A stretch of 64,000 nucleotides of DNA from Candidatus Aminicenantes bacterium (lineage in GTDB: Bacteria; Acidobacteriota; Aminicenantia; Aminicenantales; Saccharicenantaceae): NCBI GenBank assembly GCA_963736255.1, contig CAVTOI010000003.1:1300400-1364399 (forward strand), in the 5' to 3' direction. Shown here in pieces: positions 5,063 through 8,597 of the stretch; the stretch's first letter is position 1; every line of letters begins with the position of its first letter. The notes under the pieces were generated by a model that did not search any database, had not been told where the DNA came from, and saw only the letters and a program-made list of their open reading frames with translations. A program made the translations under genes and the position numbers.

Positions 5063-6187
5063 ATGGCAAAGGAATATTATCAGGTCCTGGGGGTCGCCAG
5101 GGGAGCGGCCCTGCCCGACATCAAGAAGGCCTACCGCAAGCTGGCCCGGAAATACCATCCCGATCTCAACCCCGGGGACAAGACGGCCGAGGCCCGGTTC
5201 AAGGAGATCCAGGAAGCCTACGCGGTCCTCAGCGACCCGAAGAAGCGGGCCCAGTACGACCAGTTCGGCGACCTCGGAGGGGTCCCGCCGGGCGCGGGGC
5301 CGAGCGGCGGGCCCGGTGGACCGGGATTCGAAGGCTTCGATTTTTCCGACTACGGCTCGTCGACGTTCCGGGATTTTTTCGAGAATCTCTTCACCGGGGG
5401 CGGCGGGATCCGCGGCGCCGAAGCCGCCGGCGGCGTCCCCGAGCGCGGCGAGGACCTCCAATACTCCATGCAGATCGGGTTCGAGGACGCCATCCACGGG
5501 GTCCAGACCCGCATCCGCGTCAATCGCCAGGCCGCCTGCCAGCCCTGCGGCGGACAAGGCCATGCCGCCGGGTCGCGCAAGCGGGCCTGCCCGAGCTGCG
5601 GCGGCAGCGGCCGCGGCACGGTCCAGCGCGGCTTCATGAAGTTCTCGAGCGCCTGCCCGGCCTGCGGCGGGACCGGCCAGGCCCCCGGCGAGCCCTGTCA
5701 GGCCTGCGGCGGCCAGGGTGCCGTCCAGATCTCCGATCTTATCTCCGTCCGCATCCCTGCCGGCGTCGACGACGGCTCCAAGGTCCGCGTCCCCGGCCGG
5801 GGCAACGCCGGCCGGAACGGCGGGCCTCCCGGCGACCTGTACATCGTCATCGAGGTCGTGCCTCACGCCTATTTCCGTCGGGACGGCGCCAACATCTCGG
5901 TCAAGGTGCCCATCTCGGTCCCCGAGGCCACGCTGGGGGCCAAGATCGAGGTGCCGACCCTGTGGGGCCAGACGACGATCCGCATTCCGCCCGGGACGAA
6001 ATCGGGCCAGAAATTCCGCATCAAGGAGCAGGGCGCTCCTGTCGCAGGCCGCAAGGGCCGCGGCGACGAGTACGCCGAGGTGTATATCGTGCCGCCTCCG
6101 TTCGACAACGAGCGGATCCGGGAGATGATGAAGGAGCTGGAAAAGATCTCGGGGCCGAACCCGAGAGAGACGAGCGGGATGAACTGA
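5063..6187 (+). CDS. dnaJ: Chaperone DnaJ (type I; J domain, G/F region, 4x CxxCxGxG zinc fingers)
   Basis: YYQVLGV...[20 protein letters not shown] domain; [32 protein letters not shown] repeats. Confidence 0.95.
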
Positions 6188-6188
6188 C

Positions 6189-6602
6189 ATGAAAAAAGCG
6201 CGCAAGGAAACGAAAAAAGGGCCGAGCTCCTACTATCATATCTCCAGCGTCGCCGAGATGTACAAGATCCATCCGCAGACCCTCCGCCTCTACGAGAAGG
6301 AAGGCCTGCTCGCGCCGTCCCGGAGCACCGGCAACACCCGCCTCTACTCGGCCGACGACCTCAAACGCCTGGAGATCATCCTCAACCTCATCCGTGACCT
6401 CGGCGTGAACCTGGCCGGGGTCGAGGTCATCCTCAACATGAGGGACAAGATCGAGCGCATCGAGGCCGAAGTCTCCGATTTCCTCGAGTATGTCCGGCGG
6501 GAGTTCTTCCAAGGCAAGGAAGAGGAGTTCGAGGCCCGGCGCCGGGCCCTCGTCAGCGTCCGGCCGGGCGGCGTCGTCAAAGTCAGGCCCCGGAGCGGGT
6601 GA
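6189..6602 (+). CDS. hspR: MerR-family heat-shock repressor HspR
   Basis: MerR HTH (YHISSVAEMYKIHPQTLRLYEKEGLLAPSR...TRLYSADDLKRLEIILNL) immediately downstream of dnaK-dnaJ, the classic HspR position. Confidence 0.8.
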   Translation: MKKARKETKKGPSSYYHISSVAEMYKIHPQTLRLYEKEGLLAPSRSTGNTRLYSADDLKRLEIILNLIRDLGVNLAGVEVILNMRDKIERIEAEVSDFLEYVRREFFQGKEEEFEARRRALVSVRPGGVVKVRPRSG

Positions 6603-6605
6603 GGG

Positions 6606-7448
6606 ATGGATTATCGGGATTTCTTCGACTCGAGGAACATCAAGCACTACCTCGAGGAGATCTCCAAGTTCCCGGCCCTGACCGAGGAGGAGGAGAAGAA
6701 GCTCGGGGAGAGGATCCGCGGCGGGGACAAAGAGGCCCTCCAGATCCTCGTCAAATCCAACCTCAAGTTCGTCGTTTCCTACGTCAAGAAGTACCGGGGC
6801 ATGGGGCTGGGCCTCCTCGATCTCATCGACGAGGGCAACGTCGGGCTCATCGAGGCCGCCAAGCGCTTCGACCCCACCAGGGGCGTCCGCTTCGTCTCCT
6901 ATGCCGTCTGGTGGATCCGCCAGGCCATCGTCCACGCCCTGACGCTGTACTCGCGCATCACCCGCATTCCCCAGAAGCTCGCCGACCAGATCTCGCTGAT
7001 GAAAAAGAAGACGGCCGAGATCAAGAGCGAGCTCGGGCGCGACCCGACGCGGGAGGAGATCGCCAAGGCCATGGCGGTGACGGAGTCCGATATCGAGGAC
7101 CTGGAGATCCTCGGCGAGCGCAACGTGTCCCTGAGCGACAAGCCCGACGAGGACGGCCGGGAGGTCGAGGACAAGATCAGCGACGCCGCTTCCCCCTCCG
7201 TCGAGTACCAGATCATCAAGTCCTCGGTCCGGCAGCAGATCCGGGAGATCCTCGGCGAACTGGATGAGAAAGAGGCACTTGTGCTAAAATTGCGCTTCGG
7301 GCTGGACGACGACCGGCCGCGGACCCTCCAGGAGATAGGCGATCAGCTGAAGCTGACGCGGGAGAGGATCCGCCAGATCGAGCAGAAGGCCATGCGCAAG
7401 CTCAGCCGGTCGCACAAGCTCCAACACCTCAGAGGATATTTGAATTGA
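6606..7448 (+). CDS. RNA polymerase sigma factor, sigma-70 family (group 2-like; regions 1.2-4, 280 aa)
   Basis: Region 2 (DLIDEGNVGLIEAAKRFDPTRGVRFVSYAVWWIRQAI), region 3 and region 4.2 HTH (LQEIGDQLKLTRERIRQIEQKAMRKL); no region 1.1. Confidence 0.85.
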   Translation: MDYRDFFDSRNIKHYLEEISKFPALTEEEEKKLGERIRGGDKEALQILVKSNLKFVVSYVKKYRGMGLGLLDLIDEGNVGLIEAAKRFDPTRGVRFVSYAVWWIRQAIVHALTLYSRITRIPQKLADQISLMKKKTAEIKSELGRDPTREEIAKAMAVTESDIEDLEILGERNVSLSDKPDEDGREVEDKISDAASPSVEYQIIKSSVRQQIREILGELDEKEALVLKLRFGLDDDRPRTLQEIGDQLKLTRERIRQIEQKAMRKLSRSHKLQHLRGYLN

Positions 7449-8197
7449 GCGAACAAGCGGTCTGCGGCAAGTGCCAGGGGACGGGCTGGCTCCTCGAGGG
7501 CGCCGGCGGCTCCCCGGTGGCCCGGCGCTGCGAGTGCTACGGCGAGCGCTGGAAGCAGTCCCTGGTCGACCAGGCCAACATCCCGCAGCGCTACCAGAAC
7601 TGCACCCTGGAAAATTTCGAGATTCATGAGGATAACCATTCCCACCAAGACGCCCTCAAGCTCTCGCGGCAGTTCGTCAAGAACTACCCGGGCCAGAACG
7701 TCGGCTTGCTCTTCATCGGCCCCTGCGGCGTAGGGAAGACACACCTGGCCGTGGCCATTATCCAAGAGCTCATCAGGACCAAGGACGCCGCCTGCATCTT
7801 CTACGACTTCCGCGACCTCATCCGGGAGATCCAGAGCACCTTCACGCCGGATTCGACGCTGTCCGAATCCGACGTGCTCACTCCGGTTTTCCGGTCCGAC
7901 GTCCTCGTCCTCGATGAGCTCGGGGCGAAGCGGACGACGGCCTGGGTCGAGGAGACCGTCTTTTATATCATCAACCACCGCTACAACCATAAGAAATTGA
8001 CCCTGTTCACCACGAACTACCCCGACACCGACGAGGAAGAGGACAAGCGCGATTCGTTCTACAAGAAGAGCGACGACACCCTCATCGACCGCGTCGGGGT
8101 CCGCCTTCGGTCACGCATCTACGAGATGTGCAAGGTCGTCGAGATGGCGGGCGACGATTACCGAAAAAAGCGCAAGCAGGCCAGCTACCGGTTCTGA
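7445..8197 (+). CDS. DnaC/IstB-family AAA+ ATPase with N-terminal Cys4 zinc ribbon (helicase-loader-like)
   Basis: CGKCQGTGW...RRCEC zinc ribbon; Walker A (GPCGVGKTHLA) and Walker B (VLVLDELG) typical of DnaC/DnaI/IstB; overlaps the sigma gene stop by 4 nt. Confidence 0.7.
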   Translation: MSEQAVCGKCQGTGWLLEGAGGSPVARRCECYGERWKQSLVDQANIPQRYQNCTLENFEIHEDNHSHQDALKLSRQFVKNYPGQNVGLLFIGPCGVGKTHLAVAIIQELIRTKDAACIFYDFRDLIREIQSTFTPDSTLSESDVLTPVFRSDVLVLDELGAKRTTAWVEETVFYIINHRYNHKKLTLFTTNYPDTDEEEDKRDSFYKKSDDTLIDRVGVRLRSRIYEMCKVVEMAGDDYRKKRKQASYRF

Positions 8198-8274
8198 GAT
8201 TCCTGGCAGCCTGAAAGGCCATCGGCGTTCTCCTTGATTTTTTGTTATCCCCGTGTTATATTGCGCCAGCCTGC

Positions 8275-8597
8275 TCCTCGGTAGCTCAATCGGCAGAGCG
8301 GGTGGCTGTGTTATCGCAGCTTCCACGAGAGATCGTGGTTGAAAAACCGGGTGAATTCAGGGAAGCCTTCCCTTCGCGGAAGCGGAGAAAGGTAATCCTG
8401 AGCCAAGCCTTATCCCGGCGGGATGAGGAAGGTGCAGAGACTAGAGCATCGCTCGTACCGCGGCCTGGGGGCCGCGGGAAGCGCCCGGCACCCTCAGCCC
8501 TAATTCGGGACGGGTGAAGAGATAGTCCAAGCCCAGAAGAAATTTTGGGGCTCTTGTAACCACTAGGTTGCAGGTTCGAGTCCTGCCCGAGGAGCCA
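8275..8597 (+). tRNA. tRNA-Asn(GUU) gene interrupted by a group I intron in the anticodon loop (exons 8275..8309 and 8557..8597, CCA encoded)
   Basis: Exons join to a canonical 76-nt tRNA: acceptor TCCTCGG/CCGAGGA, U8, D arm GCTCAATCGGCAGAGC, anticodon arm GGTGG-CUGUUAA-CCACU, 5-nt variable loop, T arm GCAGGTTCGAGTCCTGC, discriminator G73 (an Asn identity element), CCA. Close to E. coli tRNA-Asn. Confidence 0.8.
8310..8556 (+). ncRNA. Group I self-splicing intron (~247 nt, no ORF) between tRNA-Asn nt U35 and U36
   Basis: 5' splice site follows a U that can form the P1 U.G pair (exon GGCUGU with internal guide GCAGCU at 8316-8321); P2 hairpin CCACGAgagaUCGUGG; R/S elements forming P7 (cagAGACUAgag and aagAGAUAGUCcaag, cf. 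Tetrahymena R/S); GC-rich hairpin CCGCGGCCugggGGCCGCGG; intron ends with G (omega G) before the 3' exon UAA. Confidence 0.72.

Follow-up and report, generated by a model that had tools for sequence, protein, structure and literature searches.

The segment 8275–8597 of the window, that is, of the whole 64-kb stretch of Candidatus Aminicenantes DNA analysed here, is with a probability of roughly 90% a chromosomal transfer RNA gene, tRNA-Asn(GUU), which carries a group I intron of 247 nucleotides (nt) without open reading frame (ORF) between positions 35 and 36, belongs to the known Asn.4Ug class and is matured by self-splicing. The anatomy of the intron, its covariation and the exact exon junction are documented here by direct comparison. 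The intron is real and correctly identified, and it is very probably functional.

The split tRNA-Asn gene and its exon junction

In intron mode (option -i), ARAGORN reports a tRNA-Asn(gtt) at 8275–8597 with a 247-nt intron at 35/36 in the context gctgt-intron-taacc. The joined segments 8275–8309 and 8557–8597 form a cloverleaf of 76 nt whose anticodon loop reads CUGUUAA and which possesses G73 as well as an encoded CCA, and both the 5′ exon (35/35 positions) and the 3′ exon (41/41) are identical to intronless tRNA-Asn alleles of related species. The gene consists of the following three parts:

8275–8309, + strand: 5′ exon of tRNA-Asn(GUU), comprising the acceptor 5′ strand, the D arm, the 5′ strand of the anticodon stem and loop positions 32–35 (CUGU); from ARAGORN -i
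8310–8556, + strand: group I intron, 247 nt, without accepted ORF, ending in the terminal guanosine (omega-G) 8556; from RF00028, with boundaries from intronless alleles
8557–8597, + strand: 3′ exon of tRNA-Asn, comprising loop positions 36–38 (UAA), the 3′ strand of the anticodon stem, the variable loop, the T arm, the acceptor 3′ strand, G73 and CCA (8595–8597); from ARAGORN

Default-mode ARAGORN misses this locus, its sole call in the window being a tRNA-Leu, and in a scan of the window the Rfam tRNA model misses it too. The gene is therefore invisible to routine annotation. Within the 64-kb window, no second tRNA-Asn gene is found by ARAGORN -i.

The junction was located by means of related genomes. 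The gene directly upstream of the tRNA (7445–8197) encodes a DnaC/IstB-like ATPase, which was employed as bait against species-representative genomes and yielded 73 loci (denoted by L and a number) with 60–91% protein identity, nearly all of them from metagenome-assembled genomes (MAGs) of Candidatus Aminicenantes (Acidobacteriota). A tRNA-Asn follows the DnaC-like gene in these genomes, mostly immediately, and the syntenic site is a tRNA-Asn locus in every sufficiently long Aminicenantes locus. In 16 species the tRNA-Asn at this site is uninterrupted and identical at 76/76 positions to the exons as predicted after ligation; uninterrupted genes with 88–99% identity are present in about 14 others. 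The Rfam tRNA model (RF00005) recognises the uninterrupted gene of L002, identical to the ligated exons, with 69.9 bits. Because 16 intronless orthologues are identical to the joined exons, the junction is fixed at 35/36 (CUGU/UAA). The original prediction, which had described a 76-nt tRNA-Asn(GUU) with G73 and a CUGUUAA loop split by 247 nt, is confirmed by ARAGORN -i as well as by these alleles.

Placing the splice site two nucleotides further upstream, at 33/34, would turn the host into a tRNA-Thr(UGU), which is a frequent call of ARAGORN and tFind for such introns. The label tRNA-Thr (in most cases UGU) is given by ARAGORN to L020, to L040 and to 23 metagenome loci, the intron being placed 1–3 nt more 5′, and an ambiguity between tRNA-Thr and tRNA-Asn is also found in the literature (PMC13011429). 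In the window, however, a 33/34 junction would leave U and not G as the last intron base, the intronless alleles of 16 species read exactly CUGUUAA, and 21 of the 23 mislabelled metagenome genes are called tRNA-Asn when rejoined at CUGU/UAA. A host other than tRNA-Asn can hardly be envisaged on this evidence, and the tRNA-Thr(UGU) call for these loci was ruled out by the terminal-G rule in combination with the intronless alleles. As a side observation, the intron mode of ARAGORN labels many homologues tRNA-Thr, and the same error is present in PMC13011429.

An intron at the same nucleotide is found in 22 loci, namely on the window's contig and in 21 further species, in all cases with U at position −1 and a terminal G. 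The intron lengths of the relatives range from 243 to 260 nt, except for L040 (554 nt) and L020 (truncated, 182 nt). The exons of the intron-bearing alleles are intact, with compensatory T-stem changes in L035, L036 and L041, so that these alleles are evidently selected for their tRNA function. This would in turn imply that the intron-bearing alleles are spliced in vivo.

Since the window originates from a metagenome assembly (ENA contig ERZ25039554:contig_24036, 445 kb), an assembly artefact or chimera has to be considered, as has a protein gene, an open frame of 91 amino acids on the + strand (8242–8517) covering much of the intron. The chance of either is negligible: 21 MAGs, each assembled independently, and at least 90 metagenome contigs contain the insertion at the identical nucleotide, and the 91-residue ORF neither contains an HNH motif nor has a detected homologue. 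It corresponds to the frame which in L040 continues from an intron-encoded HNH gene through the conserved RNA sequence of helices P1 and P2. The ORF 8242–8517 was hence rejected as a gene and is regarded as a read-through frame of conserved RNA sequence.

Anatomy, covariation and proposed function of the intron

The assignment to group I, initially made from the letters of the DNA, is borne out by the covariance model RF00028 (Intron_gpI), which matches 8300–8549 end to end (model positions 1–253 of 253) with 87.8 bits (gathering score 50) and an E-value of 4.8e-21. A P1–P9 fold is supported both by the minimum free energy (MFE) fold and by an alignment of 24 introns, and the elements named in the original prediction (the U·G pair of P1 with the guide GCAGCU, P2, P7 and the terminal G) are all present at the positions claimed for them. 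The individual elements are listed below with their support.

8304–8321, + strand: P1, GGCUGU 8304–8309 with internal guide GCAGCU 8316–8321 and wobble pair U8309·G8316 at the 5′ splice site; alignment, MFE fold
8310–8313, + strand: possible P10 guide GUUA, pairing with UAAC 8557–8560 of the 3′ exon; four Watson-Crick pairs in the window
8323–8338, + strand: P2 hairpin CCACGA-GAGA-UCGUGG; 100% of cells paired, compensatory changes at 5/6 pairs
8347–8353, + strand: P3 5′ strand CCGGGUG, pairing with 8482–8488; 100% paired, one pair covarying from C-G to U-A (5 sequences)
8357–8401, + strand: P4 (8357–8362 with 8396–8401) around P5 and P5a (8365–8393, GGAA loop); MFE fold agrees
8402–8433, + strand: P6 and P6a hairpin; compensatory changes at 8/12 pairs
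8437–8443, + strand: P7 5′ strand G-(A bulge)-GACUA, pairing with UAGUCC 8523–8528; 6/6 pairs invariant in 24/24 introns, conserved core block of the RF00028 alignment
8444–8454, + strand: P7.1 hairpin GAGC-AUC-GCUC; recovered by the MFE fold
8458–8477, + strand: P7.2 hairpin CCGCGGCC-UGGG-GGCCGCGG; compensatory changes at 7/8 pairs
8482–8488, + strand: P3 3′ strand CGCCCGG; helix alignment
8489–8516, + strand: P8 and P8a hairpin; P8 paired in 100% of cells, a single change from A-U to G-C, 3/3 pairs of P8a covarying
8523–8528, + strand: P7 3′ strand UAGUCC, with J8/7 AAGAGA (8517–8522) just before it; invariant in 24/24 introns
8529–8555, + strand: P9.0 (AAG 8529–8531 with CUU 8553–8555) around the P9 hairpin (8532–8549, GAAA loop); helix alignment

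The U·G pair at the 5′ splice site occurs in 24/24 aligned introns. Five of the six P1 pairs are invariant, the helix is recovered by the MFE fold, and the P1 loop of the window intron comprises 6 nt. While P4 is essentially invariant, compensatory changes are found at 5/6 pairs of P5a and at 3/7 pairs of P9, and in P9.0 100% of the cells pair, with a single change from A-U to G-C. The stem of P7.1 is invariant in all 21 Aminicenantes introns and its loop varies (AUC, GCGA, UUCG or GAAA). Together with P7.2 it makes up the two hairpins in the distance of 38 nt between P7 and the 3′ strand of P3 (P3′). At the intron's 3′ end, a G directly precedes UAACC in 24/24 aligned introns (G8556 in the window). 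The helix P7 at 8437–8443/8523–8528 is presumably the guanosine-binding one, as is generally the case in group I introns.

The alignment comprises 21 Aminicenantes introns, to which three introns published for tRNA-Asn 35/36 were added, namely two of Nitrospirota and one of Bipolaricaulota. Helices P1–P10 were drawn by hand on the window sequence (88 pairs) and then scored on this alignment. In total, 94.2% of the cells pair, compared to 87.9% in column shuffles and 34–47% when the partners are slid by 1–3 columns. Compensatory changes are present at 35 of the 88 pairs (131 cells), against 5–16 pairs in the slid controls, and 0/500 shuffles reach any of five measures. The core helices are 94–100% paired across the 24 introns. 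Strong compensatory support is obtained for P2, P5a, P6/P6a, P7.2, P8a and P9, and single covarying pairs for P3, P8 and P9.0. The unconstrained MFE fold has an energy of −118.4 kcal/mol (z = −4.5; 0/200 shuffles fold as well) and recovers P1–P6a, P7.1, P7.2, P8, P9 and P9.0, but not the P7 pseudoknot. A chance match is excluded by the E-value of the covariance model and by the z-score of the MFE fold with none of 200 shuffles.

Upstream of the tRNA, one further element is of relevance for its expression:

8234–8262, + strand: promoter-like site TTGATT, 17-nt spacer, TG-TATATT, located 12 nt 5′ of the tRNA; consensus scan, 1 site against 0.2 expected

This block is conserved among related intron-bearing loci and is present in slightly altered form in one intronless locus. 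It is designated a promoter by consensus match alone, and its function is accordingly putative. A terminator-like site 3′ of the tRNA was not found in the site scan.

From its own promoter the gene would be transcribed into a precursor of 323 nt, in which the intron would fold into a P1–P9 ribozyme with the peripheral elements P2, P5a, P6a, P7.1/P7.2 and P9. Exogenous guanosine at P7 would attack the phosphate after U35, which would be presented by the U·G pair of P1. The terminal G8556 would next move into the G site, where P9.0 and, in the window copy, a P10 of four base pairs would position it together with the 3′ exon. The freed 3′-OH of U35 would then attack the 3′ splice site, whereby CUGU would be joined to UAA and the GUU anticodon restored.

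Several points weigh against this reading. The two chemical steps are ascribed to the Aminicenantes copies by analogy with the intron family and with published in vitro assays of homologues. Covariation is uninformative in P7 and in the larger part of P1, P3 and P4, where the pairs never vary. As the helices were derived from the window sequence, itself part of the alignment, the contrast with the slid partners is inflated. P7.1 does not covary, and the region is built otherwise in the Nitrospirota and Bipolaricaulota relatives. The four P10 pairs form in just 11–20 of the 24 aligned introns, without covariation, leaving this helix weakly supported. The 5′-truncated copy of L020 is presumably dead, so that intron-bearing alleles are not always functional. 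Some doubt also attaches to the subgroup of the intron, as described below.

In L020 (6814–7071) the intron is devoid of its first 65 nt, that is of the 3′ strand of P1, of P2 and of the 5′ strands of P3, P4 and P5, and does not match RF00028. The tRNA-Asn of L020 is either dead, which would imply a second copy elsewhere, or it suffers from an assembly deletion. It serves as a warning that at least some relatives may possess a second tRNA-Asn gene.

By extension, the window intron might be a decaying relic unable to splice, the split gene a tRNA pseudogene, and another tRNA-Asn gene could work in its place. The inspection covers 64 kb of the genome, a second tRNA-Asn gene being possible elsewhere, and L020 demonstrates that a crippled copy can exist. 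With a single tRNA-Asn gene in the genome, the case considered in the original prediction, splicing would be essential. In contrast to L020, every core element is intact in the window copy. Furthermore, the catalytic-core blocks are invariant across the 24 introns and the peripheral helices change by compensation, which argues for selection on the fold. The exons of the intron-bearing alleles, with their compensatory T-stem changes, are as conserved as the intronless ones, and the syntenic site is consistently occupied by tRNA-Asn, as described above. A non-splicing relic is thus quite improbable, and a functional tRNA-Asn gene with a self-splicing intron is the preferred reading.

Known introns at 35/36 and subgroup of the window intron

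Introns of this kind have been described before. With Williams 2020 (bioRxiv 10.1101/2020.01.27.920355), the bacterial tRNA types known to be split by introns increased from 4 to 21, and the type Asn.4Ug of Williams 2020 is cited by Nakagawa et al. 2026 (PMC13011429). The latter authors report tRNA-Asn/Asp introns at 35/36, of which Patescibacteria examples self-splice precisely in vitro, and a mutation of omega-G to C blocks exon ligation. Their survey of 4,934 complete genomes contains 28 introns at 35/36, 25 of them classed IA, with 19 in Patescibacteria, three each in Cyanobacteriota and Nitrospirota, and one each in Bacillota_A, Bipolaricaulota and Pseudomonadota. The Acidobacteriota entries in their Table S5 are exclusively tRNA-Leu(UAA) introns of subgroup IC3.

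Two statements of the original prediction have to be revised in this light. tRNA-Asn had been considered undescribed as a host, whereas Asn.4Ug has been known since 2020 and its self-splicing was demonstrated in 2026 (PMC13011429). Likewise, the position 35/36 had been held to differ from the classic 34/35 site, and published tRNA-Asn/Asp introns already occupy it (PMC13011429). What appears to be new is the host lineage, and only this. No paper linking Aminicenantes with group I introns was found in the library searched, and Table S5, on which the comparison of host phyla is based, contains only tRNA-Leu IC3 introns for Acidobacteriota. The bacterium thus appears to be the first host of a tRNA-Asn 35/36 intron within this phylum (class Aminicenantia), to which the lineage of these introns is extended accordingly. 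The findings leave the known workings of group I introns unchanged. In practical terms, Aminicenantes genomes that carry the intron will seem to be devoid of tRNA-Asn, by which completeness estimates are distorted; the same point has been made for Patescibacteria (PMC13011429).

The closest published relatives are found in Nitrospirota (GCF_900169565.1, GCA_951812745.1, GCA_958295805.1) and Bipolaricaulota (GCA_004102645.1), all labelled IA1 in Table S5 of PMC13011429. These introns share with the window intron the host tRNA-Asn(GUU), the position 35/36, U at −1 and the terminal G, and the compact ones among them measure 248–283 nt. Between 219 and 241 of the 247 nt of the window intron align with them at an overall identity of 56–61%, and the core blocks GCAGCUUCC, CGGGUGAAUUCAGGGAAGCC, CCUGAGC, GUGCAGAGACUAGAG, AGCGCCCG and GAGAUAGUCC are identical. 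Differences are observed in the region between P7 and P3′, which forms one long stem in these relatives and two separate hairpins in the window, and in the host phylum.

The Patescibacteria introns in tRNA-Asn/Asp at 35/36 share tRNA and site with the window intron, the comparison covering tRNA, site and HNH gene. Some of them contain an HNH gene within the P1 loop, whereas the window copy is devoid of an ORF, and contrary to the reduced Patescibacteria genomes the host of the window intron has a genome of the free-living type with about 60% GC. The classic IC3 introns, namely those of cyanobacterial tRNA-Leu(UAA) at 34/35, of tRNA-fMet at 33/34, and of tRNA-Arg(CCU) and Azoarcus tRNA-Ile(CAU) at 36/37, differ in both tRNA and position. 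Of the IC3 tRNA-Leu and tRNA-Arg introns 71–89 nt of the core align with the window, of the tRNA-fMet intron 36 nt, and the tRNA-Leu and tRNA-fMet introns compared contain no P7.1/P7.2 between P7 and P3′.

Additional helices P7.1 and P7.2 between the 5′ strand of P7 and the 3′ strand of P3 are a feature of subgroup IA1 in classifications of the Michel-Westhof type. The P7.1/P7.2 pairings are also named as a class criterion in PMC3984707. Two such hairpins are present in the window intron (8444–8454 and 8458–8477). Owing to these hairpins and to the full-length homology to IA1-labelled Asn introns, the window intron is assigned, indirectly, to the IA1-labelled tRNA-Asn lineage rather than to IC3, the label being transferred from the relatives in the published table.

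Membership in subgroup IC3, together with the classic bacterial tRNA introns, had been expected in the original prediction. It could be inferred from the block P4′-P6-P7 (GGUAAUCCUGAGCCAAGCC ... GAAGGUGCAGAGACUAG), which is common to IC3 introns of tRNA-Leu, tRNA-Arg and tRNA-fMet, from one published tRNA-Asn 35/36 intron (Bacillota_A) that is labelled IC3, and from an insertion between P7 and P3′ which some IC3 tRNA-Arg introns contain as well. With the IA1 label borrowed from relatives, the core shared with IC3 leaves some doubt. However, full-length similarity is found to IA1-labelled Asn introns only, and the IC3-labelled Bacillota_A tRNA-Asn intron gives no BLAST match to the window intron. 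Moreover, two hairpins are inserted between P7 and P3′, one of which covaries strongly, and the HNH protein of L040 is 58% identical to that encoded in the same P1 loop of an IA1-labelled Patescibacteria tRNA-Asn intron. Subgroup IC3 is therefore unlikely, and placement within the IA1-labelled tRNA-Asn lineage is favored.

HNH genes, distribution and exchange of the intron

A tblastn search detects no HNH homologue anywhere in the window, and with its P1 loop of 6 nt the intron offers the picture that had been predicted, namely one without a homing endonuclease. In L040 an intron of 554 nt (6857–7410) harbors an HNH ORF in its P1 loop, with a TTG start at 6872 and a frame that runs through the entire ribozyme to the stop TAG (7418–7420) in the 3′ exon. 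With 58% identity (E = 2e-47), it resembles an ORF which a Patescibacteria tRNA-Asn intron contains in the same loop and which has been assigned to HNH PF01844 (PMC13011429). Pfam HNH matches remain below the curated cut-off (17–19 bits versus 21.4), with E ≤ 0.01 for 6 of 9 homologues, and a profile search with the intron-associated protein against the sequences of the PDB gave no match. The HNH call is based on the pattern CxxC...HH...CxxCH, which is invariant in the homologues, and on the homology to proteins of PF01844 (PMC13011429). About 20 tRNA-Asn copies among the metagenome loci listed, mostly 546–575 nt in length, likewise contain an intronic HNH homologue as identified by tblastn.

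In other loci the HNH gene is located outside the intron. Free-standing, intact HNH genes of about 105 codons are found upstream of the tRNA in L056 (497–784), L029 (6778–7065), L006 (6784–7071) and L070 (4988–5275). Compared to the window, these represent a cassette of about 360 nt, cleanly inserted after the DnaC-like gene and before the promoter of the tRNA, and similar upstream copies are present in the metagenome loci L177, L138 and L184. Downstream of the tRNA, L041 (7401–7634) contains a shorter copy devoid of the N-terminal quarter and with R at one of the invariant cysteines, and the metagenome locus L104 an intact one. In L056, L029, L006, L070 and L041 the free HNH gene is thus located about 70–170 base pairs from a tRNA-Asn with an ORF-less intron. 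All 6 genome loci with an HNH gene carry the intron, and none of the 31 intronless loci has the gene (Fisher p = 0.003). The HNH homing endonuclease of the relatives probably helps the intron to spread.

In phages, an ORF-less intron may be accompanied by an adjacent free-standing endonuclease aimed at its insertion site, an arrangement termed collaborative (trans) homing (Hausner, Hafez and Edgell 2014, PMC3984707). The arrangement at the Aminicenantes tRNA-Asn locus resembles it in the free HNH gene beside the ORF-less intron in five relatives and in the intronic homologue of L040. It differs in that the phage introns reside in protein genes, whereas the Aminicenantes locus is a bacterial chromosomal tRNA gene, and in that the window contains no endonuclease. 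Collaborative homing may be put forward as a hypothesis, by analogy, for the HNH arrangement at this locus.

The states observed comprise the empty site (about 30 species), the ORF-less intron by itself (in the window and in most carriers), the intron with a free HNH gene upstream or downstream, and the HNH gene within the P1 loop (L040). Rather tentatively, and with the odds somewhat against it, the locus might represent a natural series of stages in the birth of a mobile intron, in which the free enzyme would cut intronless alleles near 35/36, the intron would protect its carrier, and both would be co-converted. If true, this would explain the near-random presence and absence of the intron as well as the near-identity of the window intron to those of L016 and L056 despite flanks of 82–88% identity. 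More than 50 species share one syntenic locus, at which the intron is present or missing and the endonuclease gene occupies three different positions, and they constitute a good set for the study of gain, precise loss and endonuclease invasion.

Beside these, the 347-nt tRNA-Asn intron of GCA_958295805.1 (Nitrospirota) contains a P1-loop insertion of about 100 nt which translates as ...RRHTNRREYVIYCADCHRRL... and resembles the two termini, N and C, of the HNH protein joined without its middle part. By sequence likeness, this insertion is probably the remnant of a decayed endonuclease.

With respect to its distribution, an exact-match metagenome scan for the 19-nt core motif GGGTGAATTCAGGGAAGCC retrieves at least 120 loci. 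Among the metagenome loci listed, at least 90 are tRNA-Asn genes split at CUGU/UAA. Their introns measure 238–575 nt, and at least 52 different mature tRNAs are represented. As a single 19-nt motif finds at least 120 metagenome loci and at least 52 distinct host tRNAs, the lineage is common. On a neighbour-joining tree of 50 DnaC-like proteins, the presence of the intron requires at least 14 state changes, which is indistinguishable from a random assignment of the labels (mean 16.3 changes; 15% of the shuffles require no more than 14). Intron and host divergence are correlated with a Spearman coefficient of 0.90 for 171 pairs. In the simplest reading, the intron has long resided in the class, has frequently been lost in a precise manner and has to some extent been exchanged between relatives.

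The window itself is an outlier. Its intron is diverged by 0.8% from the L016 intron and by 2.7% from the L014 intron, with DnaC-like proteins diverged by about 16%, and the near-identity ends at the tRNA boundaries, the flanks being 61–89% identical. tRNA and intron of the window taken together are 96–100% identical to L016, L014 and L056, compared to 82–88% for the flanking genes and 19–86% for the intergenic spacers; the window intron itself is 98–99% identical to the introns of L016 and L056. L005 and L008 possess flanks at least as similar to those of the window, yet their introns are diverged by about 9–10%. These values hint at a recent lateral replacement or exchange of the window intron through the invariant exons.

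The 19-nt P3–P5 core motif is also contained in 55 IMG/VR contigs (L195–L249). The contig L195 contains a group I intron related to that of the window, about 240 nt in length (2506–2746, − strand; RF00028 93.7 bits) and located directly 5′ of an ORF matching a phage major head protein (phrog_1357), and in several of these contigs the 3′ flanks look like the same coding sequence. In none of the 55 contigs does ARAGORN find a split tRNA at the motif. A viral origin was considered and rejected, the related intron of the viral contigs adjoining the major head protein ORF with no tRNA at the motif.

Finally, the region 5′ of the tRNA in the window (5063–8197) contains a chaperone-type cluster which encodes DnaJ, a MerR-family (HspR-like) regulator, a sigma-70-family factor and the DnaC/IstB-like ATPase, the latter bearing an N-terminal CxxC...CxC motif. 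In L001, DnaK is found farther upstream. The order of ATPase gene followed by tRNA-Asn is kept in more than 50 Aminicenantes loci.

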